A stretch of DNA of 64,000 nucleotides from Myxococcales bacterium. GTDB taxonomy: Bacteria; Myxococcota; Myxococcia; Myxococcales; Myxococcaceae. Location: contig JAUYSO010000017.1 of NCBI GenBank assembly GCA_030696265.1, positions 8,368 through 72,367 on the forward strand, in the 5' to 3' direction. Position numbers and translations under genes: made by a program. Below, piece after piece: positions 9,040-46,440 of this stretch (positions are counted from its first letter, which is position 1; each line of letters opens with the position of its first letter). Under the pieces are notes generated by a model. That model had not been told where the DNA came from, did not search any database, and saw only the letters and a list, made by a program, of their open reading frames with translations.

Positions 9040-9082
9040 AGGGGCCGCGACCTAGCACGGCCCGGCGACGGTCGAATCCTCC

Positions 9083-10837: not shown

Positions 10838-10920
10838 GGACGAACACCCTACCGGGCGCATCGCGTGGCCGACCGGACTGGCGCCTTCGTGACATCGTTT
10901 GGCGGGCGAGCCGCGGCGCC

Positions 10921-12942: not shown

Positions 12943-13039
12943 CGCGGCGCGCGTGTAGCAGTCTTCCTCGCCGACCGCGGACTACAGTGTGCGTAGAATC
13001 ATCCATTGAGACTGAACGCCCTCGCCGACATGCTGTGGC

Positions 13040-19743: not shown

Positions 19744-21327
19744 CTACGGACAGCCCACGTACGCGAAGTACAGCTCGGTGTTGCCGGCCGGCGCATTGCG
19801 ATCGTCACGCCAGCAGAACGCGAAGGTGTTGCCGTTCCACAGCGCGGTCGTGAACGTGGACGAGCCCGAGCCGCTCGAGAGCCGCAGATCGCTTCCGTTC
19901 TTCACGCCGGTGCCCGACAGCTGCATGAAATAAATGGCCGGCCGGCCCATGGTGACGCGCTCGTCCTGCCACGAGACGCCGTACTCGAAGCCGTTCCAGT
20001 CGATGCTGGCGTAGCCCGAGAAGCCGGCCGCGTTGGTGAGGCGCACCTCGGCGCCAAGTTTCTGGCCCGCGTCCGACAGGCGCTGGAAGTACACCTCGGC
20101 GTTGCCGTCACGCGTGTCGTGCCAGACCAGGGCCCACTCGGCGCGGTCAGGGTTCCACGCGAGGTCGGCCCAGGCCGAGTCGGCGGCGTTGTTGGTGATG
20201 CGCAGCTCGGCGCCCACCGGAGTGCCGTCGACGGCGAGCCTGCGGAAGTAGATCTCACGATTACCGTCACGCCAGTCGGTCCACGCGAGGCCGAAGCCCT
20301 GCCCGCTCCACTTGAGGATGGGGTAGCTCTGACGCTGCGGGTCGGTGGTGACGCGCACCTCGTTCCCCAGGCGCGTGCCGTTGGTGTCGAAGCGCATGAA
20401 GAAGAGGTCTTGCCGGTTGTTGCCGGCGCGCTCGTCTTCCCACACCATCGCGAACTCGGTGCCGGTCCACACGACGTCGGGCCAGTCGGAGTCGAGCGGC
20501 GCGCTGGTCAGTCGCACCGGAGCCCCGAGCGGCTGGCCGGTGTTTGAGATGGCCCGGTAATACAGCTCGAGGTTGTCGACGGAGTCGTCTGCGTAGACCA
20601 GCCCCCAGCGTGAGCCGGTGAAGGCCAGCGCCGGGTGCGTCGAGATGCCGGGCGTGGTGCTGACGCGAACGTCTCCGCCTCGTCGCGCGCCCTGCTTGTC
20701 GAGGGTGGTGAAGTAGATGTCGCCCTTCATCGACGCGCCGTCACGCGTGTCCTGCCAGGCGAGGCCGAAGCCATTCGTTGCAGACGCGATGTAGACGAAG
20801 TCGGTCGTGGCCGGATCGTTGGTGAGGCGCAGGTCGCCAGAAGCGTTGGTGAGCAGGCCCTCGTCGACGGTGCCGTCGCAATCGTCGTCTTTGCCGTTGC
20901 ACGTCTCGGTGGCCGGCATGCCAGGCGTGCAGGTCTGCGCGGAGCCCATGGCGCACGTCGACTGAACGATGGCGCACTCTCCGACGCCGCACATCGCCGG
21001 CATCAGGTTCTCATCGATGGCGCCGTTGCAGTCGTCGTCGAGGCCGTTGCACGTCTCAGCGGTCGGAGCTCCCGGCGTGCAGGTCTGCGGCGCGCCCTGG
21101 AAGCAGGCGGAGATGGCCCGTTTGCACGCGCCAACGCCGCACTCGACCGACGGCTGCTCCTCGTCGACCAGCAGGTCGCAGTCGTCGTCGAGGCCGTTGC
21201 AGAGCTCGACGGTGGGAATGCACTCGGGCGGCAGGCCGGCGTCTTCTGCGCTGACGAGCTGAATGCGCGGGCCAGAGCAGGTGCAGCCCGTGAGGGAGAG
21301 GAGGAGGAAGAGACCGACCACTCGCAT
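19744..21327 (-). CDS. lipoprotein with three Cys-rich CNGxDDDCxG metal-binding-motif repeats and seven ~45-aa beta-propeller-like repeats
   Basis: Lipobox LLLSLTGCT. Repeats ETCNGLDDDCNGAIDE x3. Blade-like repeats contain DIYFTTL, ELYYRAI, DLFFMRF, EIYFRRL, EVYFQRL, AIYFMQL, ELYFAYV. Confidence 0.75.
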   Translation of the reverse strand: MRVVGLFLLLSLTGCTCSGPRIQLVSAEDAGLPPECIPTVELCNGLDDDCDLLVDEEQPSVECGVGACKRAISACFQGAPQTCTPGAPTAETCNGLDDDCNGAIDENLMPAMCGVGECAIVQSTCAMGSAQTCTPGMPATETCNGKDDDCDGTVDEGLLTNASGDLRLTNDPATTDFVYIASATNGFGLAWQDTRDGASMKGDIYFTTLDKQGARRGGDVRVSTTPGISTHPALAFTGSRWGLVYADDSVDNLELYYRAISNTGQPLGAPVRLTSAPLDSDWPDVVWTGTEFAMVWEDERAGNNRQDLFFMRFDTNGTRLGNEVRVTTDPQRQSYPILKWSGQGFGLAWTDWRDGNREIYFRRLAVDGTPVGAELRITNNAADSAWADLAWNPDRAEWALVWHDTRDGNAEVYFQRLSDAGQKLGAEVRLTNAAGFSGYASIDWNGFEYGVSWQDERVTMGRPAIYFMQLSGTGVKNGSDLRLSSGSGSSTFTTALWNGNTFAFCWRDDRNAPAGNTELYFAYVGCP

Positions 21328-22609: not shown

Positions 22610-23260
22610 ATGAAACCCTTCATCAGGCTTCCCGCTCTGGCATTCTTCATTCTCTGCTCGAGCTGCGTCACCCCACTCTCGGGGTCACTGCGCTTGTCGG
22701 AGCGCCCCCTGCCACTCGTGGCAGGGCCGGCAACGGCGCGGCTCGTGTTCGTCCGTCCCGATCGATTCATGGGGAGCGCTATCGGCGCCTATTTCGTCGA
22801 CGTCTCGACGAAGCGGGTGCTCGGAAAGTCGGTCAATCAGACCGCGTTCGCGGTCGACGTCGAGCCTGGCTCGCACCTGATCTGTCCCGTCCCGACCTTC
22901 GACCAGGCCTCCTCCCGCATCGGGCCTGCAACCGCACCGGTGCTGGGCACCACCGTGCCGATGACGCGCATCACGGTCGAGGCGGGCCGCACCTATCTCT
23001 TCCGGGTGTCCGTGGGTTGGGGGCCGAGGATCGAGGCGATTCCCTCGAGGCCCGACACCCTTCGGGAGAAGGCGCTCCTCGAGACGCTTCGGGACGTTCG
23101 GCACGTCGAGCTGGCTCCGAAGGTGGACGAACTTCCCGGTGACGAGCTGGGCGAGTGGCTCGACCTGTGCCGCTTGTCCTCCAGCGATGACCTGCGCCTG
23201 AGCACCCAGCCCGACGAAGGCCGCGTGAGCGTTGCCCCGACGCCGCCGCTCGCGCCTTGA
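22610..23260 (+). CDS. hypothetical lipoprotein
   Basis: Lipobox FFILCSSC after MKPFIRLPALA. Beta-rich. Confidence 0.6.
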   Translation: MKPFIRLPALAFFILCSSCVTPLSGSLRLSERPLPLVAGPATARLVFVRPDRFMGSAIGAYFVDVSTKRVLGKSVNQTAFAVDVEPGSHLICPVPTFDQASSRIGPATAPVLGTTVPMTRITVEAGRTYLFRVSVGWGPRIEAIPSRPDTLREKALLETLRDVRHVELAPKVDELPGDELGEWLDLCRLSSSDDLRLSTQPDEGRVSVAPTPPLAP

Positions 23261-23357
23261 GTCTGCACAGGCGTGTGTTCAGGCCGTTTGCACAGCAGCA
23301 CGTGCGGGACTGCGATCGGCGACGGCGCGAGTCTCGGCGCCGTCTGAGTCGGGAGCT

Positions 23358-23969
23358 CTAGGCGGCGACGCGCAGGTCCGGCCTCTTCGCCGCGGCCGCC
23401 TTCGACTGCTTCCGCACGTCCCACGCTTCTTTGAGCCCATCGATGGCGCGGCCGAGCAGGCCCTTCTTCTGCGACGCGGGAGCGTGCTCCTCACCCGGGC
23501 CACGGGCGCCGTACTCGTAGATCTTCCGCGTGCCCATGATGTGGTCGAACCACGGGTGGGTGACGCACCAGTTCGCGTTCTGGTCCTTGCCCATGTGGTG
23601 ATCGTAGTGCCACGGCATGTGCTGCTTCGCCCACTGGTGGTCGAGGTGCGACTTCTTGTGGAGCACGTAGTACCGGTGCATTCGGTACCAGACGGTGGCG
23701 GTGAAGAATGGCGCCACCGGGAACATGGGCACCATCGCCACCGCGCCGAGCGACAACGCGAGCGCTTCTTTTCCCTGCGGCGACCACGTCAGCACGCTCT
23801 TCACGTACTGCGAGTCGAACATGTCGTTCTTGCGCGACTCGCGGTGGTGCTCGTGCCAGTGAAAGGCCCAGAAGCTCTTCTTGTTCTTGCCCAGCCCATG
23901 CAGCCAATACTTGTGAATCAGCCACTCGCCTGCGTTCGACGCCGCCAGCGCCACGGGAATGCCAATCAT
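23358..23969 (-). CDS. fatty acid hydroxylase / sterol desaturase superfamily membrane protein
   Basis: His-box motifs HWHEHH, HKKSH, HYDHH. Start at MIGIPVALAAS to avoid overlapping the divergent TetR gene. Confidence 0.65.
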   Translation of the reverse strand: MIGIPVALAASNAGEWLIHKYWLHGLGKNKKSFWAFHWHEHHRESRKNDMFDSQYVKSVLTWSPQGKEALALSLGAVAMVPMFPVAPFFTATVWYRMHRYYVLHKKSHLDHQWAKQHMPWHYDHHMGKDQNANWCVTHPWFDHIMGTRKIYEYGARGPGEEHAPASQKKGLLGRAIDGLKEAWDVRKQSKAAAAKRPDLRVAA

Positions 23970-24004
23970 CTGCGGGCTCCTCTCTTCGTGTTGGGAGTAG
24001 AACA

Positions 24005-24697
24005 ATGACCAAACGGTCACGACAAAACAAGCCCCCGGCGAAGAAAAAGACAGCCATCGAGGCCGAGGTGCGTCGCCCGGGGCCGGTTGGCGGGGTGCGC
24101 GACACCAACCGCAGGGAGAAGGCCGCCGCGATCAAAGAGGCGGCGCTCCACCTGTTCCTGGAGCGCGGCATCGACGCGGTGAGCGTCGACGACATCATGA
24201 GCCGCGCGGGTATGGCGAAGGGCGGCTTCTACCGGTACTTCGAGACGCAGACCGCGCTGGTGACCGAGATCATCGACGGCGCGCGGAAGTTGATGACGGA
24301 CGCGCTCGAGACCTGCAGCGTCGACCTTCGCACCGCCTCGACGCGTGACGCGCAGTTCGCCGCGTACCGAAAAGTCGGTGACGTGGTGGCGACGTTGCTG
24401 ATGGAGCACCCCGGCGAGGTGCGCCTCTATCTCCAGGAGTGCCGCGCTCCCGACAACGGCCCGCGTGGCCCCATCGTCGAGCTCTCACGCACCGTCTCGA
24501 AGTACGCCATCAGCATCACGGCGCAGGCGCAGGGCCACGGCATCTTGAAGCCGATTCCGGTGCCGGTGAGCGCGCTGACGGTCGTGGGCGCCTCCGAACG
24601 ACTGCTGCTCGCGGTGCTGCAGGAGGAGGACATCGGCAACCCGCTCGAAGTTCCAGAGGCGCTCGCGACGCTGATCCTCGACGGGCTCAAGGCGTGA
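24005..24697 (+). CDS. TetR family transcriptional regulator
   Basis: N-terminal HTH KEAALHLFLERGIDAVSVDDIMSRAGMAKGGFYRYFETQ. Divergent from the hydroxylase gene, 35-nt intergenic. Confidence 0.85.
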   Translation: MTKRSRQNKPPAKKKTAIEAEVRRPGPVGGVRDTNRREKAAAIKEAALHLFLERGIDAVSVDDIMSRAGMAKGGFYRYFETQTALVTEIIDGARKLMTDALETCSVDLRTASTRDAQFAAYRKVGDVVATLLMEHPGEVRLYLQECRAPDNGPRGPIVELSRTVSKYAISITAQAQGHGILKPIPVPVSALTVVGASERLLLAVLQEEDIGNPLEVPEALATLILDGLKA

Positions 24698-24767
24698 ATT
24701 CGGGCACACCCGTTCGAGCAGGCTTCGGGCGGTGACGGCCAGTCGGCGGTAGGGTTGAGGCCACACC

Positions 24768-25910
24768 GTGAAGCCGCGCGACGACACACTGTCTTTGTGG
24801 GCGCTCGTCATCAGCCTCGGGCTGCATGGCGGGGCCGCGCTCGTCGTCGCGTTCACGCCCGATCGCGTTCCACCCAGCTCGAGCAGCACCGGCATGACGT
24901 TGGTGGAGATCAGCATCGAGGAGCCGCAGCCGCCGGTGGTCGAGCCGCCACAGCCTCCCGAGCCGAAGGTCTCGCCGCGCGTCGACAAACGCGCGCCGAA
25001 GGTGGTGCCGAAAGCCGCCACGCCCGAGCCGACCCCGGCGCTCCAGAACGATCGGCCGCAGGTCGACGTCCCCGCGACCGAGCCGCTGCGTGCTCCGACG
25101 CCAGACCGGCCAAGCCTCATTCCCGGCGGCGCCTTCGCGCTCTCCCTCGACGCCGGGGTCTTCGAGCCTGACGACGAGCCGCGCGGCCTGCACGCGCCGT
25201 CGGTTTCGAAGGATCTCGTCGGAGCGCTGACGAAGGAGACCATCGGCCGGGGCAAGGTCGATCGCGGCCTCGTGCACCCGTATTACGTGACGCTCGGCAA
25301 GGCGCTCATCAAGAACTGGGACGCCGACCGCGCCGTCTCGAAGAAAGGCCTCGCGGGCTTCGGTGAGCAGTTCGTGCAGAACTCGAAGGTGTTCAACGAG
25401 ATCTGGCTCGACCGCGCGTCGCAGTTCGGCGCCACCGGCGCGCCGATGGATGCGCCCGTCTCGAACGACAACGCGTCACGAAGGACGGCGACGGTGACGA
25501 ACAACATTCAGGGCATCGGCGGCGTCGATCTCGAGGCCAGGAAAGAGGTCTCTCGTCAGATGCGGGAGCAGTTCAAGGCCACCCGCCGCGCCACCATTCG
25601 CGTCACCCAGAACACCGACGGGCGGCTGGTGAAGGTCGAGCTCGTCGCGCCCTCGAACGACGCCGCCGTCGACAAAGAGGCGATGGCCGACGTGCGCGCC
25701 GCCGCCGAGAAGCTGCCCCCGCCACCCGCCGAGGCGCTCGAGGGCCGCACCGAGCTGATCAGCACCTGGGCCTTCGAGCTCGTCGTGAGCATCTCGCCGC
25801 CCATCCCCACCTTCACCTTCGAGTTCGACGAGGCGCTCGGCTTCATCGACGCGCGGCTTCCCCTCGACCGGCGCATCTACAAGAAGGTGCGCCTCGTCTC
25901 AGTGGACTGA
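24768..25910 (+). CDS. TonB family protein (N-terminal TM anchor, Pro-rich spacer, C-terminal TonB-like domain)
   Basis: GTG start with GAGG 7 nt upstream. TM helix LWALVISLGLHGGAALVVAF. PPVVEPPQPPEPK. C-terminal RVTQNTDGRLVKVELVAPSNDAAVDKEAMADVRAAAEKLPPPP. Confidence 0.55.
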   Translation: MKPRDDTLSLWALVISLGLHGGAALVVAFTPDRVPPSSSSTGMTLVEISIEEPQPPVVEPPQPPEPKVSPRVDKRAPKVVPKAATPEPTPALQNDRPQVDVPATEPLRAPTPDRPSLIPGGAFALSLDAGVFEPDDEPRGLHAPSVSKDLVGALTKETIGRGKVDRGLVHPYYVTLGKALIKNWDADRAVSKKGLAGFGEQFVQNSKVFNEIWLDRASQFGATGAPMDAPVSNDNASRRTATVTNNIQGIGGVDLEARKEVSRQMREQFKATRRATIRVTQNTDGRLVKVELVAPSNDAAVDKEAMADVRAAAEKLPPPPAEALEGRTELISTWAFELVVSISPPIPTFTFEFDEALGFIDARLPLDRRIYKKVRLVSVD

Positions 25911-25917
25911 ACCTTTC

Positions 25918-26367
25918 ATGGCCGACAAACGACGCTTCGATCTCTTCGCCGAGCTGCTCGTCACCCGCTTCCCCGAGGTCAAGCGCGTGTTCGACGTGGC
26001 CGGTGGCATGGGGAAGCTGAACGAAGCGCTCGTCGCGCGGGGGCGCTCCTGTCTGACCTTCGACCGCCGGCACAAACACCTGCCCGTCGAATACGCCGAG
26101 CGTGACTTCACCCTCGACGAGCCGTGCACCGCCGACGCGGTGGTGGGCATGCACGCCGACGGCGCGACACGAGTCATCATCGAATACGCGGCGAAGCACG
26201 GCCTGCCGTTCGCCGTCGTGCCCTGCTGCTCCGACAACTCGATGCCCTACAAGCCGTGGATGCGGCACCTGGCAGAGCTCGGCACCTCATTGGGAATGAC
26301 GGTCGACGAAGTGACGCTCCCGATGGAAGGCCGCGCCCGGGTCATCATCGGCCAACGCGGAGTTTGA
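25918..26367 (+). CDS. small class-I (Rossmann) SAM-dependent methyltransferase-like protein
   Basis: Motif I VFDVAGGMGKL; acidic beta2 terminus TFD. 8 nt after the TonB-family gene. Confidence 0.45.
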   Translation: MADKRRFDLFAELLVTRFPEVKRVFDVAGGMGKLNEALVARGRSCLTFDRRHKHLPVEYAERDFTLDEPCTADAVVGMHADGATRVIIEYAAKHGLPFAVVPCCSDNSMPYKPWMRHLAELGTSLGMTVDEVTLPMEGRARVIIGQRGV

Positions 26368-26399
26368 CCTTCGTCAACTCCGTGATTGGGTTCGCTCCC

Positions 26400-27047
26400 A
26401 TGAATCCAACGCTTCGACTCTCGACGCTCGTCCTCTTCATTTCTGCCTGTGGTCCCGTCATGACGGAGCCCGATGCCGGGAGCACCGGCGGTGGTCTCGC
26501 TGCAGGCGGGGGCTCGGCAGGTGGCTCGGCGGCGGGTGGCTCGGCGGCGGGTGGCTCGGCGGCAGGTGGCTCGGCGGCGGGCGGCTCCGCGGCAGGCGGC
26601 TCCGCGGCAGGCGGCTCGGCGGCTGGTGGCTCGGCGGCTGGCGGCTCGGCGGCAGGTGGCTCGGCGGCAGGCGGCTCGGCAGCGGGTGGCTCGGCAGCGG
26701 GTGGCTCGGCAGCAGGTGGCTCGGCGGCAGGTGGCGCTGCCGGAGGGGGAACCGCACAAGTCAGCTTCATGTCGCAGGTCGCACCGATTCTCGCGGCACG
26801 ATGTAGCACCTGCCATTCGACCGACACCGTCGCCGCAGCCAACACCTACGTGCGCGGCACGAGCTCATGCGGTGGCCCGCGCCTCGTCGCGAGCGACGCC
26901 ACGGCGAGCTTGCTCTTCCAGAAAGTCGCAGGGACGCAGACGTGTGGCGGACGTATGCCCCGAGGCTGCTCGGGCAATTCCTGTCTGCCTCAAGTGCAGA
27001 TCGACCTCATTCGCGACTGGATCAACGCCGGCGCGCCCAACAACTAG
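26400..27047 (+). CDS. lipoprotein with (GGSAA)n linker and a C-terminal c-type-heme (CxxCH, PSCyt1-like) domain
   Basis: Lipobox LFISACG. About 16 GGSAAGGSAA repeats. VAPILAARCSTCHS has a CxxCH heme-binding motif. Confidence 0.55.
   Translation: MNPTLRLSTLVLFISACGPVMTEPDAGSTGGGLAAGGGSAGGSAAGGSAAGGSAAGGSAAGGSAAGGSAAGGSAAGGSAAGGSAAGGSAAGGSAAGGSAAGGSAAGGSAAGGAAGGGTAQVSFMSQVAPILAARCSTCHSTDTVAAANTYVRGTSSCGGPRLVASDATASLLFQKVAGTQTCGGRMPRGCSGNSCLPQVQIDLIRDWINAGAPNN
26496..26750 (+). repeat. intragenic tandem repeat, 15-nt period (ggctcggcggcgggt), about 16 copies
   Basis: Near-perfect 15-mer iterations encoding GGSAA. Confidence 0.85.
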
Positions 27048-27133
27048 GTTTCAGTGGCGTCACCTTGCCGTTTCCTGACGAGTGAAAGGGTCACGATCCT
27101 GCCTGCTGTTTGCGGGTAGGGTGGCGCCGCTCG

Positions 27134-29341
27134 ATGCGCCCGGTCATCGCCTTTGCAGCCTGCCTGTGGTCGGCCTCCGCGTTCGGGGCCATCTACGAGG
27201 CCGTCGTCGACGCCGACAACGAAGAAGACATCTTCGCGATGGTGCAGCGAGGCGACATCTCGCAGGACACGGGCGACACCCTGCTCGAGCTGCTTCGCGA
27301 AGGCGTCGACCTGAACTCGGCGCCGCGCGAGAGGCTCTATGACTTGCCCGGCCTCACCTACGACGACGTCGACAAGCTCATCCTCTACCGCACGCAGAAG
27401 GGCCGCATCGAAGACCCGGCCGAGCTCGTCGGCGCCGGGGTGATGACCGCCGAGCAGCTCATCGGCATCGCCGTCTACATCTCGCTCGAGCCGGTGAAAG
27501 AGAAGCTGCCAATCGGCGGCAAGCTTCGCCTGCTCACCCAATACACGCTGACCGATTCGCTCGCGCCGCCGGCGCTCTTCGCGGCCCGGCTCAGGGGCCC
27601 GCTCGACCTGACCGCCGGCGCCATGCTCGTCACCAGCCGGCTCGACCCGGTGCAGCCCCGCTTCGACCAGACGCTCCAGGGCCTCGCGACCGAAGGCTAC
27701 AGGTACCGCCTCGACGCGCCGCGCCTGTTCCTGCAGTGGCTCAACGGCAACCGCCGCGTCATCGTCGGCACCTTCACCATCGGCTTCGGCGAGCGCCTCA
27801 CGCTCGACAACACGCGCCGGGTGACCCCGCGCGGCCTCTACCTCACCGACGACTTCAGGCGAAACCAGGACCTCTCGACCCTCTGCCGCACCAGCGTCGA
27901 CACCGGCGCCACGCCGCCCCCCGAGTGTCAGGGTGACAGCCGCTACGTCACCGCCGACTACGCGACGCGCGACGCTTTCCGTGGCGTCGCCGGCAGCATC
28001 GAGAACCTCGACCTCGGCGACCAGCGCTCGCTCTCGCTCTACGGTTTCCTCTCGTACCAGTCGCGCGGCGTGTACCAGTACGATCTGTACGATCGCGCCA
28101 CCTGCCTCGACCCTTCGTCGAGCGACTCGGACTGCAGCTCGCCGCGCATCTCCATCCTGAACCCGCAGGACCCGAGCACCCCATGGCGGCTTCGCTACGC
28201 CACCCTGCCTGGCTTCTTCGACGAGCTCTCGGCCGGCGGCCACGTCGACTTCAAGCCCAACTACGCCCTTCGCTTCGGCATCACGGGGTACGGCGCGGTC
28301 CCCTTCTTCAACACCGTGCCTCCAGGCAGCGCGGTGCAGCCCGACTTCCAGGACACCTCGCGCTACCCCAACGGCGGCGCCTACGGAGCCATCGGCGTCG
28401 ACGCGCAGGCCGTGCTCGGCCCCGTCAACCTGCACCTCGAGGTGACGCGCAGCTTCGACAAGGCCATCAACAACCAGGGCGGCGGCTTCGGCGCCGTGCA
28501 GCGCACCACCTGGGCGCCCAAGGGCCACGAGCTCGAGGTCGTCTTCCGCTATTACGACAACCGGTTCCTCAACCCCTACGCACGGCCGTTCTCAGGGCCC
28601 GACGAAGACGCCGGCCAGCGGGCGCGCAACGAGCTCGGCGCGCGGGTGCGCTACTTCGGCAAGTTCAGTCGCGACTGGCAGTTTCGCGCCACCGCCGACT
28701 TCTGGACGCTGCCCTTCGCCGGCCGGGGAGGCCGCGCAGGCACCACCAACCTCATCCTCCTCACGCGCGTCGACTTCACGGGCTTCAGGGGCTTGAAGCC
28801 CAGCATCTGGTTCCGCCTGAGCGACAGAAACCTCGCCGTCAGCCAACGCGGGGTCTGCAGCCAGACCCAGGTGGTCTCGGGCATGCCCGAGTTCTTCAAC
28901 ACCCCGGACGACTTCGACGGCGAGGTCACCTTCTTCACCTGCGACTCGTACCGCGTCGTGCAGCGCATCGACGTGCGCCCCTTCGGCAAGCGCCTGGGCT
29001 TCACCGAGCAGGCCTCGTTCTCGTGGCGCGACGACCTCTCGAGCGCGTACCGCGAGAACTTTCGCAACGACCTGCAGGTCTGGGTCGAGGCGATGAGTCA
29101 GCCGGTCGACTGGCTCTCGCTGCGGCTGCGCTCACGCCTGCGCGCCGAGGGCATCGACAGCCCCACCACCTACGAAGACTCGCTGTGGACGTTCTTCGAG
29201 GCCGCGTGGATTCCGTTCAAGGGCACGCGCGTCGCGGCGCGCTACGACCTGTTCGTGTGGCTCGACCAACGGGCCTCGACCTTGCGCCGGCAGCCCTCTC
29301 CAGAGCATCGTTTCCTCCTCGACCTCCGCACCAGCTTCTGA
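27134..29341 (+). CDS. predicted outer-membrane beta-barrel protein with an N-terminal ComEA-like helix-hairpin-helix (DNA-binding) domain
   Basis: Signal peptide MRPVIAFAACLWSASAFGA. HhH: VDLNSAPRERLYDLPGLTYDDVDKLILYRTQKGRIEDPAELVGAGVMTAEQL. Then ~600 aa of alternating-polarity strands rich in G/Y/F/R. Ends ...FLLDLRTSF, a C-terminal Phe beta-signal. Confidence 0.7.
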   Translation: MRPVIAFAACLWSASAFGAIYEAVVDADNEEDIFAMVQRGDISQDTGDTLLELLREGVDLNSAPRERLYDLPGLTYDDVDKLILYRTQKGRIEDPAELVGAGVMTAEQLIGIAVYISLEPVKEKLPIGGKLRLLTQYTLTDSLAPPALFAARLRGPLDLTAGAMLVTSRLDPVQPRFDQTLQGLATEGYRYRLDAPRLFLQWLNGNRRVIVGTFTIGFGERLTLDNTRRVTPRGLYLTDDFRRNQDLSTLCRTSVDTGATPPPECQGDSRYVTADYATRDAFRGVAGSIENLDLGDQRSLSLYGFLSYQSRGVYQYDLYDRATCLDPSSSDSDCSSPRISILNPQDPSTPWRLRYATLPGFFDELSAGGHVDFKPNYALRFGITGYGAVPFFNTVPPGSAVQPDFQDTSRYPNGGAYGAIGVDAQAVLGPVNLHLEVTRSFDKAINNQGGGFGAVQRTTWAPKGHELEVVFRYYDNRFLNPYARPFSGPDEDAGQRARNELGARVRYFGKFSRDWQFRATADFWTLPFAGRGGRAGTTNLILLTRVDFTGFRGLKPSIWFRLSDRNLAVSQRGVCSQTQVVSGMPEFFNTPDDFDGEVTFFTCDSYRVVQRIDVRPFGKRLGFTEQASFSWRDDLSSAYRENFRNDLQVWVEAMSQPVDWLSLRLRSRLRAEGIDSPTTYEDSLWTFFEAAWIPFKGTRVAARYDLFVWLDQRASTLRRQPSPEHRFLLDLRTSF

Positions 29342-29347
29342 CCCACC

Positions 29348-30478
29348 ATGATCTCGCTCCCCCTTCGCCTTCTCGCCGTCACCGCGCTCCTCCTGGCGCT
29401 CTCGTGCGCTGGCGTCACCACGGAGCAGTCCAAGCGCTTCACGAAGGACGAGACCCGCTCGCTGCTCAAGCGCCTCGAGACCGTCAGCCTCGAGCTCGGC
29501 GAGTTCCCCATCGAGGGCGCCTCGTCGGTGCTCGACGGCGACACCATCAAGGTCAAGGGCCTGCCAGCGTCGCTGCGTCTGCTGGGCCTCGACACCGAAG
29601 AGACGTTCAAGAAGGACTCCGAGCGCGCGGCGTTCGCGGCGGGCTGGGAGCAATACAAGAAGCAGATGCAGGGAACGTCGTCGCGGCCGGCGAAGTACGC
29701 CACGCCACTGGGCGAAGACGCCAAGCACTACGCGCAGGCCTTCTTCGAAGACGTTCGCGAGGTGCGCATGGAGCGCGACCACCCCGGCGAGATCCGCGAC
29801 TTCTACAACCGCTACCTCGCCTACGTGTTCGCGAAGAAGAACGGCCAGTGGGTGAACTACAACGTCGAGTGTGTGCGGGCCGGCTTCTCGCCCTACTTCG
29901 TGAAGTACGGCCGCAGCCGCCGCTTCCACAAAGAGTTCGTCGACGCCGAGCGCGAGGCGCGTGAAGGCCAGCGCGGCATCTGGAAGCAGGGCGCCATGGC
30001 CTACCCCGACTACGAGGAGCGCCTGAAGTGGTGGGCCGAGCGCGAGGCCGTCATCACCCGCTTCGAGAAGGCGGCCGTCGAAGACCCGGAGCACTACATC
30101 GCGCTCACCCGCTGGGACGCGATGCTGAAGCTCGAGAGCAAGGTCGGCCAGGAGGTGACGATTCTCGGCTCGGTCAGCGACCTGAAATACAGCGAAGGCA
30201 CCGGGCCCTCGGTGGTGAAGCTCGCCCGCACCCGCACCAACGACTTCGACGTCGTCTTCTTCGACCGCGACGTCTTGTTGTCCACCGGCGTGCAGTTCAA
30301 GAAGAGTGAATACGTGCAGGTGCGCGGCACCGTGCAGAAGTACAAGAACGAGAAGGGCTGGGAGCGGCTGCAGGTGGTCGTCTCACTCCCCGGGCAGGTG
30401 CTCGCGCCGTCGACCTCGCTCGAGAAGCTGCTGACTGATGATCAGAAACGGGCCGACCGCAGTGAAGAGGATGACTAA
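29348..30478 (+). CDS. staphylococcal-nuclease (SNase/thermonuclease) fold lipoprotein
   Basis: Lipobox LLLALSCAG. SNase motifs VLDGDTIKV and LRLLGLDTEE. 7 nt after the barrel gene. Confidence 0.8.
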   Translation: MISLPLRLLAVTALLLALSCAGVTTEQSKRFTKDETRSLLKRLETVSLELGEFPIEGASSVLDGDTIKVKGLPASLRLLGLDTEETFKKDSERAAFAAGWEQYKKQMQGTSSRPAKYATPLGEDAKHYAQAFFEDVREVRMERDHPGEIRDFYNRYLAYVFAKKNGQWVNYNVECVRAGFSPYFVKYGRSRRFHKEFVDAEREAREGQRGIWKQGAMAYPDYEERLKWWAEREAVITRFEKAAVEDPEHYIALTRWDAMLKLESKVGQEVTILGSVSDLKYSEGTGPSVVKLARTRTNDFDVVFFDRDVLLSTGVQFKKSEYVQVRGTVQKYKNEKGWERLQVVVSLPGQVLAPSTSLEKLLTDDQKRADRSEEDD

Positions 30479-32786
30479 CGTGCCTTCAATTCGAGTGATG
30501 TTCCTGGTGGCGGCCGTCGCGGCCGTGTCGTGTACCCCGCCCGTCGACATGCCCACCGACGCCTGCAAGGGCCGCGTGGCCGGAGACCTCGTCATCACCG
30601 AGCTGATGCTCGACCCCGAGGGCACCGACACAGGCGCCGAGTGGATCGAGATCTTCAACACCCTCGGCACGCCGATCGACCTGCGCGGCTACACCATCAC
30701 CTACCGGCAAGGCACCTCGACGGCGAAGTCGCACACCGTTCGTGCCTCGGTGCAGGTGCCGGCCCGCGGCTACCTCGCGCTCGGTGACGTGCGCTCGGGC
30801 CCCAACCCCTCGTGGATTGGCTACAGCTACGGAGACGATCTCGGCGCGCTCAGCCAGACCTCAGGCACCGTCGCCATTCGCTGCGGCATGACGGCCATCA
30901 ACGAGTACAGCTACTCGCGCGCCGCGCGCTCGGGCCGCTCCCGCATGCTCGGCGGTGGCGTCGACCCCGATGCCTCGCGCGTCTCGAACGAGGCCAACTG
31001 GTGCGACACGCCCACCTCGACCGAGTACACGCCGCGCGGCTACGGCACGCCCGGCGGCCCCAACCCGCAGTGCGCTCCCGAGGCGATGGTCGGCACCTGC
31101 CTGCAGAACGGCATGCCCCGCCCCATCGTCGCGGCCGAGGCCGGAGACCTGCTCATCACCGAGGTCATGGCGAGCCCGAGGGCCGTCACCGACACCCTCG
31201 GCGAGTGGATCGAGCTCTACGCCACCACCGACGTCGACCTCAACGGCCTCGCCATCGCGACGAGCACCAGCCGCGCCACGCTCACCTCTCCTGAGTGCCT
31301 CACGGTGCCGGCGCAGTCGTACAACATCATCGCGCGCTCGAACGACGCCTTCGTCAACGGCGGCCTGCCGAAGGCCGTGGCGACGTTCTCGGTCAGCCTC
31401 TCGTCGGCCAATGAGCGGCTGCGGCTGGTGCGTGGTGATGCCGGCATCGACGACGCCACCTTCTTCGCCTCGCAGACCGGCGTCTCATGGCAGGTGCGAC
31501 CCGAGCTGCTCGCCAACCCCGACGAGATTCTGCCCAGCCTCAACGACACCCCTGACTCGTTCTGCAAAGCCAGCTCAGCGTGGATGGGGAGCGCGGGCGA
31601 CTTCGGAACGCCCGCCGCGGCCAACGGAGCCTGCGCTGCGGACTCTGGCGTCGTGGTGGTGCCCGACGGCGGCCTGCCGACCTTCGACTGCAACGCCATC
31701 GACGGGGGCGACCTCGTCGTCACCGAGGTGATGGTCGACCCGCCCAGCACCGACACCGGCCTCGAGTGGTTCGAGCTCTTCAACACGACGGCCGCGCCCA
31801 TCGACCTCGCGGGCCTCACGCTCACCTACCGCCAGGGCGCGACGACCCCCAGGTCCCACGTCGTGCGCAGCTCCGTCATCGTGCCGCCGGGCCAGGCGGT
31901 CGCGGTCGGCGACGTGCGCACCGGGCCGAACCCCGCGTGGATCAGCTACGCCTACGGCGCAGACCTGGGCGCGTTGAACAACTCGTCGGGCACCGTGGGC
32001 GTTCGCTGCGACACGAAGGTCGTCGGTGAATACACGTGGGTGCGCACGGCGCGCTCCGGGCGAAGCCGCATGCTCGGTGGGCCTGTGACGCCCACGACTG
32101 CGCTCGCTGCGGTCGAGGCCAACTGGTGCGACACGCCGACCAGCAGCGAGTACACGCCTGGCAGCTCTGGCACCCCTGGCGCGGCGAACCCGGTCTGCGC
32201 TCCAGAAGCCATGACGGGCACCTGCCTCGACAACGGCACCCCGCGGCCCATCGTCGCCGCAGAGCCGGGCGACCTCGTCATCACCGAGGTGATGCCAAGC
32301 CCGTCGGTCAGCACCACGGTCGGAACCTGGTTCGAGGTGTACGCCACGACCGACGTCGACCTGAATGGCCTCTCGGTCGCCAACGGCGCAGGCACGCGCA
32401 ACACCATCGCCTCGTCGAACTGCCTGCGCGTGCCGGCGACGACGTACGCGATTCTCGCGCGCAGCGCGAACGCGTTCCTCAACGGCGGGCTACCGCCCCC
32501 CATCGCCACCTTCACCATCGGCATCAGCAGCTCGGGCAACGAGCTGCTGCGGCTCTTCCGGGGTGACGCCGGCATCGACGAGATCTCGTTCTTCCGGTCG
32601 ACGAGCGGCAAGTCATGGCAGGTGCCCGGTGAGCTGCTGATCGACCCGATGCTCATCACGCCCGCCATCAACGACGTGCCGGCGAACCTGTGCATCGCGC
32701 CGAACCGTTTCGCCACCGACGCCGGGCCCGGCGACTACGGCAGCCCGACCGAGCTGAACCCCCTCTGTGACGGCGGCGCGCCCTGA
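30471..32786 (+). CDS. lipoprotein of four lamin-tail-domain (LTD)-like repeats, arranged as an internal ~330-aa tandem duplication
   Basis: ATG 30471 has GAGG 4 nt upstream. Lipobox AAVAAVSCT. LTD signatures LVITELMLDPEGTDTGAEWIEIFN...IDLRGYTI, LLITEVMASP...EWIELYATTDVDLNGL, LVVTEVMVDPPSTDTGLEWFELFN, LVITEVMPSP...WFEVYATTDVDLNGL. Confidence 0.7.
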   Translation: MTNVPSIRVMFLVAAVAAVSCTPPVDMPTDACKGRVAGDLVITELMLDPEGTDTGAEWIEIFNTLGTPIDLRGYTITYRQGTSTAKSHTVRASVQVPARGYLALGDVRSGPNPSWIGYSYGDDLGALSQTSGTVAIRCGMTAINEYSYSRAARSGRSRMLGGGVDPDASRVSNEANWCDTPTSTEYTPRGYGTPGGPNPQCAPEAMVGTCLQNGMPRPIVAAEAGDLLITEVMASPRAVTDTLGEWIELYATTDVDLNGLAIATSTSRATLTSPECLTVPAQSYNIIARSNDAFVNGGLPKAVATFSVSLSSANERLRLVRGDAGIDDATFFASQTGVSWQVRPELLANPDEILPSLNDTPDSFCKASSAWMGSAGDFGTPAAANGACAADSGVVVVPDGGLPTFDCNAIDGGDLVVTEVMVDPPSTDTGLEWFELFNTTAAPIDLAGLTLTYRQGATTPRSHVVRSSVIVPPGQAVAVGDVRTGPNPAWISYAYGADLGALNNSSGTVGVRCDTKVVGEYTWVRTARSGRSRMLGGPVTPTTALAAVEANWCDTPTSSEYTPGSSGTPGAANPVCAPEAMTGTCLDNGTPRPIVAAEPGDLVITEVMPSPSVSTTVGTWFEVYATTDVDLNGLSVANGAGTRNTIASSNCLRVPATTYAILARSANAFLNGGLPPPIATFTIGISSSGNELLRLFRGDAGIDEISFFRSTSGKSWQVPGELLIDPMLITPAINDVPANLCIAPNRFATDAGPGDYGSPTELNPLCDGGAP

Positions 32787-32815
32787 CGCGCTCGAAGCCC
32801 TGGAGCGCAGCGCTG

Positions 32816-33280
32816 GTGATGATGCCCATGGTGGCGGCCTGTGGAATGCCCACGCCACCCAGCCTCTGCGGGCCCTCGACGGCCGTCGTCAGCCGCGCCA
32901 TCGATGGCGATACGCTCGAGCTGTCTGACGGCAAGCGGGTGCGCCTGCTCCTCGTCGACACGCCCGAGTCGACCAACGGCAAGACCGACTGCTTCGGCCA
33001 GCAAGCCGCGCAGTTCACCTCGGACACGGTGACAGGCAAGACGGTGGAGCTCAGCTACGACGAGGCCGGCTGCACCGACCGGTTCGGGCGAACGTTGGCC
33101 TATGTGAAGGTCAACGGCGTCGACCTGAACCGCACGCTCGTCGAGCAGGGCTATGCGTGCACGCTGTACGTGTCTCCATCGGGCGGCGCGCGGCGCGACG
33201 AGTTCGAGACGTACGAGTCGCAGGCGAAGACGAGCCGCCTTGGCTTGTGGGGCGCGTGCACCGTCGTCACCTGCCAGTAG
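32816..33280 (+). CDS. staphylococcal-nuclease (SNase/thermonuclease) fold protein, probably a lipoprotein
   Basis: RAIDGDTLEL and VRLLLVDTPE. N-terminal MMMPMVAACG is a short Cys-containing leader. Confidence 0.75.
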   Translation: MMMPMVAACGMPTPPSLCGPSTAVVSRAIDGDTLELSDGKRVRLLLVDTPESTNGKTDCFGQQAAQFTSDTVTGKTVELSYDEAGCTDRFGRTLAYVKVNGVDLNRTLVEQGYACTLYVSPSGGARRDEFETYESQAKTSRLGLWGACTVVTCQ

Positions 33281-33343
33281 GCGCAGACCATTACACGGAG
33301 GCCGCGCGAGCTTCTCGGCTCGTAAGCAAGGGCCAGCCCAACG

Positions 33344-33910
33344 TCACCGATGCGCGCCCACGGCCTGATCCAGCGCGTCGACCTCGAGGGGGAGCGCGTG
33401 CCGCCGGAACCAGCGCACCAGGTCCATCGCCGTCACCATGCCGCGCAGCTGACCTTCGCTGGTGACGACGGGGACGCGGTCGAGGTCGTGCTCGTCCATC
33501 ACCTGGGCAATCTCTGCGACGGTGGCGCGGTCCGACACGGCCACCACCGACGTCGTCATCGCGTCCTCGACCTCCACGTCGAGTCCGGCTTCAGCGGCGT
33601 GGAGCTCGGAGGTCGAGACCAGACCCACGAGCACCAGGTTGTCGTCGACGACGGGAGCAGACGAGAGGTGGGCGGCGTCGAGCACGGAGAGCGCCTCGGC
33701 GACCGAGAGCTCTGCGTCCAACACGGTCACCAGCGGGCTGACCAGCCCACCGCACAAGCGAAGCCCACAGCGCCCGGCGGCCACACCATGGGCACATGCC
33801 TCGAGCGGGCAGCGCTCCGTGCAGCTGATGGAACGTTCTCCGTCGGGGCTGACCTTCACCAGCCGCCGCTCCCTGAGACAGACCAACTCTTCGTCGACCA
33901 TGGGCTCCAT
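33344..33910 (-). CDS. CBS-domain pair protein with a Cys-rich N-terminal segment
   Basis: Two CBS-like repeats: VTVLDAELSVAEALSVLD...VVDDNLVLVGLVS and TTSVVAVSDRATVAEIAQVMDEHDLDRVPVV. N-terminal CLRE...CTERCPLEACAH...C. Confidence 0.7.
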   Translation of the reverse strand: MEPMVDEELVCLRERRLVKVSPDGERSISCTERCPLEACAHGVAAGRCGLRLCGGLVSPLVTVLDAELSVAEALSVLDAAHLSSAPVVDDNLVLVGLVSTSELHAAEAGLDVEVEDAMTTSVVAVSDRATVAEIAQVMDEHDLDRVPVVTSEGQLRGMVTAMDLVRWFRRHALPLEVDALDQAVGAHR

Positions 33911-34071
33911 CGATGCCTCACACGACTGCGTTGTTCACTGCCCAGGGAGCGGAACGAGTGGTGGGTTGGAGTGTGACACACGGCGACAGACGAAAAGGCG
34001 AGGGCCCCCCCGAAAGGGCGTCACCTGATCCTCATTCATCCGTCAGGGCGGAGCCGCCCCACCGTTCGGCG

Positions 34072-35751
34072 CTACTCCCGGGTGACGGCGCGAAGAATGC
34101 GCTCCCGCCGCTGATCGAGCAGCCTCAGCACCACGGGCAACGTGAGCCGGTACACGGCCCAGGCGAGCACGGCCGAGAAGACGATGAGCAACGCCGTCAT
34201 CACGTTCGGCCCCTGCTTCCCGACGAGCTTCATCGCGGTCGCGAACGGCGCGGTGCCAATCGACGCCGCCGCGAGCCCCAGCATCGACGCCGCGAACGGC
34301 AGCGTGTCGCGACGCTTCAGGTTGGCGTGGAACTTCACGGGGAAATACAGCGACAGGAAGTTGCCCGCGGTGAGCAAGACCGGCACCAGCGCGATGACCG
34401 AGAGCAGCGCGCACGTAACGTCGAGCGCGCTCCCGGCCCGGAAGTACGCCACGTAGAAGACGACGACGAGCACGCCCATCACGCCGCCGACCGCGCCGTG
34501 CACCACGTTCTTCGCGCGCAGCACCTCTCCCACCGGCACCGGCGAGGAGAGGAACACCGTGAAGCCGTGGCCGTCGTAGGCGAACGCGTTCTGCGAGAAC
34601 GTCGAGGACAAGACGATGGCCCCGTACACCGTGAGGCCGCCCATCACCCAGGCGTCGGCTGAGGCCCCGAGAAGGAAGACGAACAGCGCGCGGCCAGACA
34701 GCAGCTTGAGCAGAATCGCGAGCACGAAGGGCACCGAGGCCAGCAGCCGCGCGCGTGGGTTGTTCCAGAGGTCGATGGCCTCGCGCACCACCAACGTCGA
34801 GAACGTGCTCTTCGTGTGCGCGAAGGGGTTCGACGCCCGCGCCTGGTTCGAGATGGAGCCCGCGCGCCCCGAGAAGCGGTGGAACTGCAGCAAGAGCCCC
34901 CACGCCACCACGAGCGCGACGAGGCTGAGTTCGAGCGTGGCGAGCGCGTCGGCCGCCGCGAGCTCGAGCCGCCCCGCCCAGTTCGCGCGCAACAGATGGC
35001 CGAACCACCCGGTGGGAAACCGCCCCAGCGCCAGCGCCGCGTTCTCGATGATGGTGTCGGGCACCGCCGCCGCGCCGACCTCGTTGAGGTGCAGCAGCCA
35101 CTCGGTGTCGACGGCGGGGATGAACGCCGCCACCACGAGGCTCACCACGAAGCCACCGCCAATCAGCTCGGCCGAGCGCGCCTGCCGCAGCAGGTTCAGC
35201 ATCACGTGCAGGCCGACGCGTGAGAGCGCCGCGTTCAGCAGCACGTACGAGGCGAAGCCGACCACCACCAGCGCCCACGACTCGGGCGGCCGGTTCTTCA
35301 GGTACCCCACCGTCGCGCCGACGAGCGGGCCGTAGAAGACGAAGGTGCGTGGCTCGAACAGGCTCGCCAGCGTCGACGCCAACATGAGGCGGAAGCTCGA
35401 GATGGGGAACGCCGAGTAGCGCGACAGCTCCGAGTGGTCGTCGACGCCAGCCGACAACACCGGCCACGTCACCCACGTCGCGCTCGTGACGAACAACAAG
35501 AGGCGAACCAGGAAGTCGCCCCACGCGTCGGAGCCCACCACTACCGGGTGCTGCATGAAGCGGTAGAACATCAGCGCGAGCACGACCGACGGCGAGGCCG
35601 AGAAGGCGAACGCGACGACCGAGAACCAGCGGTGTCTGCCATCGCTGCGGTTGAAGCCGATGGTGAGGCGCAGCTGCCAGAGCAGGACGAGGTGCTGGAA
35701 GAACGACGGAGGTCCGGGCCTTGAAGGCTGTACGGCCCGCTCAGCCTGCAC
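34072..35751 (-). CDS. ABC-2 type exporter permease (multi-pass membrane protein)
   Basis: Many hydrophobic helices. Immediately downstream of, and overlapping, the ABC ATPase gene. Exact start uncertain. Confidence 0.65.
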   Translation of the reverse strand: MQAERAVQPSRPGPPSFFQHLVLLWQLRLTIGFNRSDGRHRWFSVVAFAFSASPSVVLALMFYRFMQHPVVVGSDAWGDFLVRLLLFVTSATWVTWPVLSAGVDDHSELSRYSAFPISSFRLMLASTLASLFEPRTFVFYGPLVGATVGYLKNRPPESWALVVVGFASYVLLNAALSRVGLHVMLNLLRQARSAELIGGGFVVSLVVAAFIPAVDTEWLLHLNEVGAAAVPDTIIENAALALGRFPTGWFGHLLRANWAGRLELAAADALATLELSLVALVVAWGLLLQFHRFSGRAGSISNQARASNPFAHTKSTFSTLVVREAIDLWNNPRARLLASVPFVLAILLKLLSGRALFVFLLGASADAWVMGGLTVYGAIVLSSTFSQNAFAYDGHGFTVFLSSPVPVGEVLRAKNVVHGAVGGVMGVLVVVFYVAYFRAGSALDVTCALLSVIALVPVLLTAGNFLSLYFPVKFHANLKRRDTLPFAASMLGLAAASIGTAPFATAMKLVGKQGPNVMTALLIVFSAVLAWAVYRLTLPVVLRLLDQRRERILRAVTRE

Positions 35752-46439: not shown

Positions 46440-46440
46440 G

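Follow-up and report, generated by a model that had tools for sequence, protein, structure and literature searches.

A 64,000-nucleotide stretch of a Myxococcales bacterium genome (GenBank assembly GCA_030696265.1, contig JAUYSO010000017.1, positions 8,368 to 72,367 of the forward strand; "the window" below means this whole stretch) contains seven closely packed genes, here called G1 to G7, and raises the question of which of them belong together and what they do with nucleic acid at the cell envelope. Myxococcota abound as predators and decomposers in soil, in sediments, and in wastewater, and the locus may bear on how they harvest the nucleic acid of lysed prey. Our analysis identifies four genes, G4–G7, as the conserved functional unit. 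They encode a predicted outer-membrane beta-barrel with an N-terminal helix-hairpin-helix (HhH) domain (G4), a lipoprotein that combines a staphylococcal nuclease-type (SNase) domain with an OB fold (G5), a lipoprotein with four lamin-tail domains (LTDs; G6), and a small SNase lipoprotein (G7). We interpret this unit as an outer-membrane cut-and-import nuclease module, a reading to which we give about an even chance of being right and which we weigh below against other explanations of the same genes.

Conservation of a four-gene core

We searched for G1–G7 by tblastn in loci fetched from relatives (numbered with the prefix L), which comprised 81 non-redundant Myxococcota loci. G4–G7 all lay on one strand within 5.4–9.0 kb in 57 of these, in the order G4-G5-G6-G7 in 46 and G5-G6-G7-G4 in 11, the latter being the loci of Nannocystis, Kofleriaceae, and Polyangia. 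The remaining loci were on contigs that end too early (22) or were incomplete despite sufficient flanking sequence (2). Synteny of the four-gene core across the phylum indicates that the cluster is not a chance arrangement and answers the call for synteny in other Myxococcota made by an earlier annotation of this DNA (hereafter the sequence-only reading); together with the lipoboxes and barrel model described below, it supports that reading's view of the barrel and nuclease lipoproteins as a genuine conserved envelope module. Two loci with very divergent barrels (L088 and L089; profile E ~1e-70) hold a minimal set of barrel, LTD protein, and one SNase of 225–263 aa. Five loci (L048, L049, L062, L074, and L087) lack the SNase-OB gene (G5) and have the LTD gene immediately after that of the barrel.

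When 1193 open reading frames (ORFs) of the window region and the fetched loci were clustered all against all, no further partner family recurred, and the remaining synteny was clade-level only, for example of trypsin-like proteases. Relatives of G4 numbered 213 in a 90%-identity protein collection and occurred in 257 GTDB species-level genomes, and a G4-family profile search of 1.8 billion representatives gave 315 clusters at 50% identity (E ≤1e-30). The named records were almost all Myxococcota, the few otherwise-labelled ones being metagenome-assembled genomes (MAGs). Named carriers were the cultured Nannocystis exedens DSM 71, N. radixulma, and Enhygromyxa salina SWB005, along with Kofleriaceae and Polyangia MAGs; no cultured Myxococcus, Corallococcus, or Stigmatella appeared among the best 80 relatives of G4. 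The module in these 257 species-level genomes is anchored by a barrel family with neither a Pfam model nor a solved relative.

The upstream genes follow a different distribution. G1 and G2 occurred together in 26 loci, all from one Myxococcaceae/Archangiaceae-like clade, and were absent from distant loci; G3 and the TetR-family gene upstream of G1 were confined to the closest relatives, with TetR upstream only where G4 identity was at least ~57%. In some relatives, unrelated genes, at times on the opposite strand, intervene and part G1 and G2 from the core: those between G2 and G4 encode sulfatase-like membrane proteins in L023 and L026 and include an opposite-strand Ser/Thr kinase in L032 and L033. 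Homologs of G2 with 76–77% identity were also found in unrelated neighbourhoods, with no G1, G4, or nuclease module nearby (L091 and L092; Table 1).

These distributions bear directly on the model derived from the sequence-only reading, in which all seven genes form one TonB-dependent system whose HhH domain and LTD protein capture extracellular double-stranded DNA at the barrel. The tight one-strand spacing in the window, the bona fide TonB-family character of G1, and an upstream 8-mer common to G1 and G4 are in its favour. However, only four of the seven genes are conserved together, so the unit shrinks to G4–G7, and the properties of the supposed DNA-capturing proteins, discussed in the following sections, count further against it.

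The G4 beta-barrel

A structure model built from G4 and 40 homologs (predicted local distance difference test score, pLDDT, 80.7; predicted template modelling score, pTM, 0.80) consists of a helical domain at residues 30–115 followed by ~24 long strands at residues 128–734. This confident prediction upholds the outer-membrane barrel call previously made for G4. Strand connections alternate between short turns (2–6 residues) on one side and long loops (up to 64 residues) on the other, which is the canonical outer-membrane-protein pattern. From this arrangement, topology rules predict that both termini, and hence the N-terminal HhH domain, are periplasmic.

The barrel belongs to no Pfam or NCBIfam family, and no Pfam model covered it in the listed homologs. 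Its best geometric matches were the FimD and PapC pores of chaperone-usher systems, at 9–11% identity, and there is no sequence relationship to these: G4 lacks the usher plug and the usher N- and C-terminal domains, and no chaperone or pilin genes lie nearby. Searches of Pfam and NCBIfam gave no homology to Slam (DUF560), ushers, BamA, or LptD, so the usher likeness is geometric only. Neither a Plug (PF07715) nor a TonB_dep_Rec (PF00593) signature was found in G4, and hhalign of G4 against the window's own TonB-dependent transporter (TBDT; 44037–46445, Plug plus TonB_dep_Rec) returned a probability of 0.3%.

To estimate the charge of the pore, we took the more polar face of each strand as the lumen face, using DSSP strands and hydrophobic parity and not coordinates. 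By this secondary-structure estimate, the predicted lumen of G4 holds 31 Lys/Arg (27 of them Arg) versus 18 Asp/Glu, a net charge of +13, and the family mean is +10.8. Residues R664, R666, and R668 form a ladder that is conserved as Arg or Lys in at least 39 of 41 sequences. On this model, G4 is predicted to be a ~24-stranded barrel of an uncharacterised family with an Arg-rich lumen. Right after the signal peptide, members family-wide carry a strand-like motif, Y-x-V-P-I-x-V-x-x-E-D-D-I (AIYEAVVDADNEEDI in G4), whose position recalls a TonB box; we treat this as only a lead.

An acidic ComEA-fold domain

The N-terminal domain of G4 models confidently as a ComEA-type double HhH fold. HHH_3 (PF12836) matched G4 at 24.4 bits, just under the Pfam gathering score of 27 (the cut-off by which all Pfam scores here were judged), while 10 of 10 divergent family members matched it N-terminally, 7 of them above the cut-off. 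The ComEA-type assignment of the sequence-only reading thus stands for the fold and fails for the DNA-contact residues, the G-I-G hairpins and lysine pair being lost. Aligned to Geobacillus/Bacillus ComEA, G4 reads PGLTYDD for PGIGPAK and GAGVMTAEQ for TGIGEKTLEK, and it carries T, D, and D where Vibrio cholerae ComEA has G60, K62, and K63. Its relatives read PGLS, PGVT, or PGIT, with the lysines absent and the second glycine usually absent, divergent members included. In V. cholerae ComEA, K62 and K63 follow the first G-I-G hairpin and are required for DNA binding, and the changes G60V/E, K63E, and K62/63A each abolish DNA uptake (PMC3879209).

The domain is also strongly acidic, with an isoelectric point (pI) of 4.05 and a net charge of −14. 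Across 41 sequences, the mean charge was −5.6 for the HhH core and −9.2 for the 36 residues before it. We dropped net charge alone as an argument about DNA binding by the HhH domain, as aligned Gram-positive ComEA segments are also at about −3; the case against binding is made by the loss of the hairpin and lysine residues, plus the extra acidic segment. By alignment, the domain has a ComEA-like fold from which the residues that contact DNA have been lost, and a role as an acidic gate or dock is likelier than one as a DNA clamp. With the domain predicted to be periplasmic as well, the earlier proposal that extracellular DNA is bound at the barrel is not supported here.

The same residues bear on a second possibility, that the locus is a pilus-independent DNA uptake system for transformation, in which long DNA would be threaded through G4 while the nucleases make ends or degrade one strand and a ratchet in the periplasm is formed by the OB and LTD domains. 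Riemerella anatipestifer depends for transformation on an HhH protein and on a barrel in the outer membrane with an extracellular protein adjacent to it (PMC8459023), a DNA-utilisation locus is related to this system (PMC12478041), and G4 would offer a wide, Arg-rich lumen with a ComEA-fold domain at its periplasmic mouth. However, this HhH domain is without the residues that ComEA needs to bind DNA (PMC3879209), two non-specific and fully intact SNases would destroy transforming DNA, and no ComEC, DprA, or other competence genes were linked in the flanks of the loci or in the window. We consider DNA uptake for transformation very unlikely.

Nuclease and lamin-tail lipoproteins

Both nuclease genes passed the SNase model (PF00565, cut-off 21), with 43.8 bits for G5 and 82.4 bits for G7 (E 3.8e-23). 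G7 aligned end to end with Staphylococcus aureus nuclease (E 2e-20), matching IDGDT, RLLLVDTPE, and GRxLAY, and G5 aligned to it as two pieces flanking a long insertion. Equivalents of D21, R35, D40, E43, and R87 were invariant among 60 G5-type and 31 G7-type sequences, and the T41 equivalent was Ala in 6 of the former and 2 of the latter. Judged by these residues, G5 and G7 are predicted to be catalytically intact Ca2+-type SNases, and the SNase calls of the sequence-only reading are sound. Scores of both proteins were far below the NCBIfam equivalog cut-offs for secreted thermonucleases (Nuc, NucI, and EcnA).

G5 also carries a C-terminal OB fold, which the earlier annotation had missed. It is indicated by a weak PF01336 match, by PF01336 hits precomputed in several orthologs, and by an AlphaFold2 (AF2) model with a pLDDT of 76; a profile of this domain searched against the PDB found nothing significant, and the OB fold was visible only after structure prediction. 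In G6, the LTD model (PF00932) matched four stretches at 139.5 bits (cut-off 34.3; E 6.6e-41), in agreement with the four repeats counted previously. Lipoboxes were present in 41 of 54 G5, 49 of 59 G6, and 28 of 31 G7 orthologs examined.

G6 has a pI of 4.4 and a net charge of −33, and G7 has a pI of 4.8. For this very acidic G6 protein, DNA binding by the LTDs is only an analogy. With an HhH domain that is predicted to be periplasmic and has lost its DNA-contact residues, and an LTD protein at net −33, we regard the seven-gene capture model introduced above as highly improbable.

Matches of G5 and G7 to the PADLOC candidate family PDLC01096 (E 2.7e-14 and 1.2e-21, respectively, via the SNase domain) bring in defence as a further explanation, with the nucleases acting as anti-phage or anti-competitor effectors, for example as lipoprotein toxins exchanged between cells. 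The description of PDLC01096 as "SNc+LTD" indicates that SNase and LTD domains are also fused in one protein elsewhere, and myxobacteria do exchange lipoprotein nuclease toxins such as SitA. However, PDLC01096 is a candidate family only and the match reflects the common SNase domain, no immunity-like gene is paired with G5 or G7, and the proteins are conserved and syntenic phylum-wide, neither polymorphic nor patchy. Of the explanations weighed here, a defence or toxin role is the one to which we give the least credence.

A putative cut-and-import module

We favour a model in which nucleic acid from lysed prey, dead kin, or the biofilm matrix would be cut at the cell envelope by the SNase lipoproteins G5 and G7, sitting in the outer membrane beside G4. 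G5 would bring an additional nucleic-acid-binding OB fold, G7 would be the minimal enzyme, and the acidic four-LTD lipoprotein G6 would join them there. The resulting anionic fragments could then cross the outer membrane through the Arg-lined barrel of G4, with its periplasmic acidic ComEA-fold domain gating the channel or serving as a docking site. Gating may be powered, in this lineage only, by the TonB paralog G1 via the N-terminal strand motif of mature G4; conservation of the G1 SxxxH motif and the presence of GGTAGGGT before both G1 and G4 are consistent with such a link.

Several observations weigh against import. No periplasmic nucleotidase, phosphatase, ExbBD, or inner-membrane transporter was linked to the module in the ORF clustering and flank domains, which did not include a search specific to ExbB or ExbD. 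Mono- and dinucleotides, the end products of SNases, could use general porins, and a pore of 24 strands seems too large for them. Dependence on TonB would be without precedent for a barrel that has no plug or TBDT signature, and TonB is absent from most loci of the family and separable from the core. The acidity of G6 and G7 means that electrostatic capture of DNA is not evident, and the positive lumen charge is a secondary-structure estimate, from DSSP strands and hydrophobic parity, made for the G4 family alone. The analysis itself establishes the synteny, the domain identities, the intact catalytic residues, the lipoprotein signals, the predicted barrel fold with its Arg-rich lumen, and the lost ComEA contact residues; what we infer is the outward orientation of the lipoproteins, the substrate, the passage of fragments through the barrel and its direction, the gate role of the HhH domain, and the coupling to TonB.

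The main alternative is a surface-display machine, in which G4 would be a translocon or anchor (Slam-, usher-, or LptDE-like) that moves G5–G7 to the surface or holds one of them in its lumen, with no import at all. The periplasmic acidic HhH domain would then receive cargo, and the displayed nucleases would serve prey digestion, remodelling of extracellular DNA in the matrix, or escape from DNA traps. Genes for three lipoproteins always accompany that of the barrel, external DNA is within reach of the nucleases only if these are exposed at the surface, and a barrel of usher size fits this role; a protein-binding function is plausible for a periplasmic domain without DNA-binding residues, and ORF clustering of the loci showed no linked import or catabolic genes. 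On the other hand, G4 showed no homology to Slam (DUF560), ushers, BamA, or LptD in the family searches, an Arg-rich lumen with a conserved Arg ladder would suit an anion path better than a protein path, and the adjacent TonB paralog with its shared upstream motif has no known export role. We regard display as a serious contender, though a rather unlikely one.

The cut-and-import reading also has a bolder form, which we consider unlikely. In it, the G4 family would be a new type of outer-membrane channel for nucleic acids, whose 24 strands carry an arginine ladder and whose acidic, ComEA-derived domain is a DNA-mimicking gate or plug that a dedicated TonB paralog opens in some lineages. It would provide Myxococcota with a route across the outer membrane for oligonucleotides or even long DNA that is independent of pili and TBDTs and is fed by lipoprotein nucleases docked on the barrel.

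If the barrel does conduct fragments, the module would be a second, independently evolved counterpart to the ddb/SusC-type solution of Bacteroidota described below, and would matter for phosphorus cycling, for the turnover of extracellular DNA, and possibly for gene transfer. As a display device, it would speak to the surface display of lipoproteins in diderms outside Neisseria and Bacteroidota.

Relation to described systems

Our literature search found no published description of the G4–G7 combination, in line with the sequence-only reading, which did not recognise it as a described system; a functional analogue, ddbABCDEF, does exist (PMC12478041). In Bacteroidales, this locus encodes a transporter of the outer membrane, nucleases that are signal peptidase II (SPII) lipoproteins, and a DNA-binding partner whose fold is HIN/OB-like (PMC12478041); it is required for DNA depletion and is related to the genes for transformation in R. 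anatipestifer (PMC12478041, PMC8459023). Loci of this kind, which serve DNA utilisation and combine nuclease lipoproteins with a conduit through the outer membrane, have been known since 2025, and the parts here are unrelated. G4–G7 resemble ddb by analogy only and are known from genes alone. The ddb transporter is a SusC/TBDT protein of 22 strands, whereas G4 has ~24 and no Plug or TonB_dep_Rec; the G4–G7 nucleases are of SNase fold, the ComEA-fold domain is fused to the barrel, and the phylum is Myxococcota. DUF5689, the DdbD-type partner, had no match among the seven proteins at E up to 0.1 in Pfam.

Individual parts have relatives elsewhere. Xds of Vibrio and YhcR of Bacillus are extracellular nucleases built from the same vocabulary of LTD, OB, and nuclease domains. 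ExeM of Shewanella also carries an LTD (PMC6085458), and G6 weakly matched the NCBIfam model for ExeM. ExeM, Xds, and YhcR are multidomain proteins, whereas here the LTD, OB, and nuclease domains are split over three lipoproteins beside a barrel, and the catalytic domain of ExeM and Xds is of the endonuclease/exonuclease/phosphatase type, not SNase. G7 is like staphylococcal nuclease over its full length, with all the catalytic and Ca2+-binding residues, and G5 has the same residues; unlike staphylococcal nuclease and the thermonucleases, both are diderm lipoproteins encoded with a barrel, G7 is acidic, and G5 has an insertion and an OB domain. Finally, ComEA is soluble or anchored in the inner membrane, whereas the HhH domain of G4 is fused to a barrel and strongly acidic, with its hairpins and lysines replaced.

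Upstream neighbours

G1 matched TonB_2 at 37.3 bits (cut-off 22), with TonB_C below the Pfam cut-off and tonB_Cterm at 26 bits against 27.1 in NCBIfam. An N-terminal transmembrane helix carries S-x-x-x-H (ISLGLHG), a motif found in 30 of 33 orthologs, and a Pro-rich spacer read off the sequence, PPVVEPPQPPEP, lies between this helix and the C-terminal TonB domain. Having these hallmarks of TonB energy transducers in its sequence, G1 is a TonB-family protein, as it had been called.

The methyltransferase call made for G2 could not be confirmed, all matches being sub-threshold. The one Pfam match was Methyltransf_32 (16.6 bits, cut-off 27), the DVAGGMG stretch of G2 resembles S-adenosylmethionine (SAM) motif I, and a G2 profile searched against the PDB met methyltransferases at E 0.046 or weaker only, with nothing significant. 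PF13679 was precomputed on a few orthologs in a family of 874 unnamed proteins. Judging from its homologs, G2 is a strongly conserved small protein that is not dedicated to the module.

G3 had no match above cut-off in Pfam or NCBIfam. PSCyt1 (PF07635), the family suggested for it earlier, gave no match, and PccH, Cytochrome_CBB3, and Haem_bd appeared at E 0.02–0.04, all under cut-off. The CxxCH motif noted in this lipoprotein did prove to be conserved (11 of 13 orthologs), as was the downstream MP (13 of 13). A 15-bp tandem repeat at 26515–26735 (14.7 copies, 91% matches) encodes the (GGSAA)n linker of G3, and a 201-aa ORF in another frame (26473–27078) is an artefact of this repeat. In L003, the slot of G3 is taken by a protein of 302 aa (9030–9938), which indicates that this position in the cluster is variable; the protein has a signal peptide and ...GGWRF at its C-terminus, and from its sequence it looks like a small outer-membrane barrel. 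The TetR gene is a neighbour outside the conserved core and a possible local regulator.

Layout and start signals

The seven genes are real ORFs running in one direction on the plus strand, as first described: GC content at third codon positions (GC3) is of coding type at 0.86–0.93 for G1, G2, and G4–G7, over a background GC of 68%, and the figure of 0.66 refers to the ORF enclosing G3, not to G3's own span. The gaps from G1 to G7 are 7, 32, 86, 6, −8, and 29 nt. The earlier figures of 8, 33, 87, 7, and 30 were each one nucleotide too high, the 8-nt overlap of G5 and G6 was correct, and the length of 736 aa given for G4 should read 735 aa. The G4 protein is 100% identical to a protein of a MAG labelled Archangium sp. 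Bin_47_5, and an identical copy of the G5 protein is on a contig of GCA_030693825.1. Rfam had zero matches over 23000–34500.

The window has three copies of the 8-mer shared by G1 and G4, GGTAGGGT, where 0.31 would be expected, and all of them lie 8–12 nt 5′ of a start codon (Table 1). The 8-mer also precedes G1 in L010 and L011, and (T)AGGGT stands at about the same distance before the G4 ATG in relatives down to 56% identity. GGTAGGGT may act as a −10-like element, in which case the leaders would be very short, or as a translation signal of an unusual kind, and its copy at 27115–27122 is a candidate start signal for the G4–G7 unit. Scans for promoters, terminators, and inverted repeats around the two large gaps and the TetR gene yielded no usable signal.

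If G7 begins at its first canonical start codon, the GTG at 32816, its signal peptide is very short (VMMPMVAAC), and G7 orthologs have longer N-termini. At 32783, a CTG shares bases with the stop codon of G6 (CTGA), and a start there would give a normal lipoprotein signal, TRSKPWSAALVMMPMVAAC; translation of G7 may begin at this CTG.

Table 1 Coordinates of the seven genes, their domains, and nearby features (window positions, except where a fetched locus is named)
Feature	Position	Strand	Description
TetR-family regulator	24005-24697	+	70 nt upstream of G1; TetR_N E 4.9e-14
G1	24768-25910	+	380 aa; TonB-family, clade-specific accessory
G2	25918-26367	+	149 aa; predicted cytoplasmic; DVAGGMG stretch
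G3	26400-27047	+	215 aa; lipoprotein, (GGSAA)n linker, C-terminal CxxCH...MP domain
G4	27134-29341	+	735 aa; N-terminal HhH domain and predicted outer-membrane beta-barrel
G4 type-I signal peptide MRPVIAFAACLWSASAFG	27134-27187	+	Read off the sequence; pLDDT <50 at residues 1-19
G4 N-terminal domain, residues 19-120	27188-27493	+	AIYE...EEDI strand motif, acidic segment, ComEA-fold double HhH
G4 beta-barrel, residues 128-735	27515-29338	+	Predicted; ~24 strands, Arg-rich lumen positions, R664/R666/R668 ladder
G5	29348-30478	+	376 aa; SNase and OB-fold lipoprotein
G5 SNase domain, ~residues 50-215	29495-29992	+	
G5 OB fold, ~residues 250-346	30095-30385	+	Preceded by helical linker; acidic tail after
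G6	30471-32786	+	771 aa; lipoprotein with four LTDs
G7	32816-33280	+	154 aa; small canonical SNase lipoprotein
CBS-domain gene	33344-33934	-	Convergent; bounds the cluster downstream
GGTAGGGT 8-mer	24748-24755	+	Ends 12 nt before G1 start codon
GGTAGGGT 8-mer	27115-27122	+	Ends 11 nt before G4 start codon
GGTAGGGT 8-mer	10846-10853	-	Before MopE-like lipoprotein gene at ~9083-10836 (-)
G2 homolog	L091 10001-10465		After GAPDH gene
G2 homolog	L092 10001-10453		Before GH43 gene

Other features of the window

Elsewhere in the window, on the minus strand, the TonB-dependent receptor (Plug plus TonB_dep_Rec) adjoins a protein with HTTM and vitamin-K-dependent gamma-carboxylase lumenal domains (44037–47778), an unusual pairing for a bacterium. 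A 686-aa fusion at 10921–12981 (−) combines a queuine tRNA-ribosyltransferase (TGT) with a SAM-dependent methyltransferase domain of the Methyltransf_30 family. Two large proteins that are rich in Cys, either lipoproteins or secreted, and carry MopE-type putative metal-binding repeats are encoded at 9083–10836 (−) and 19744–21327 (−), the first of which also has long Gly-rich GGN/GGS repeats.

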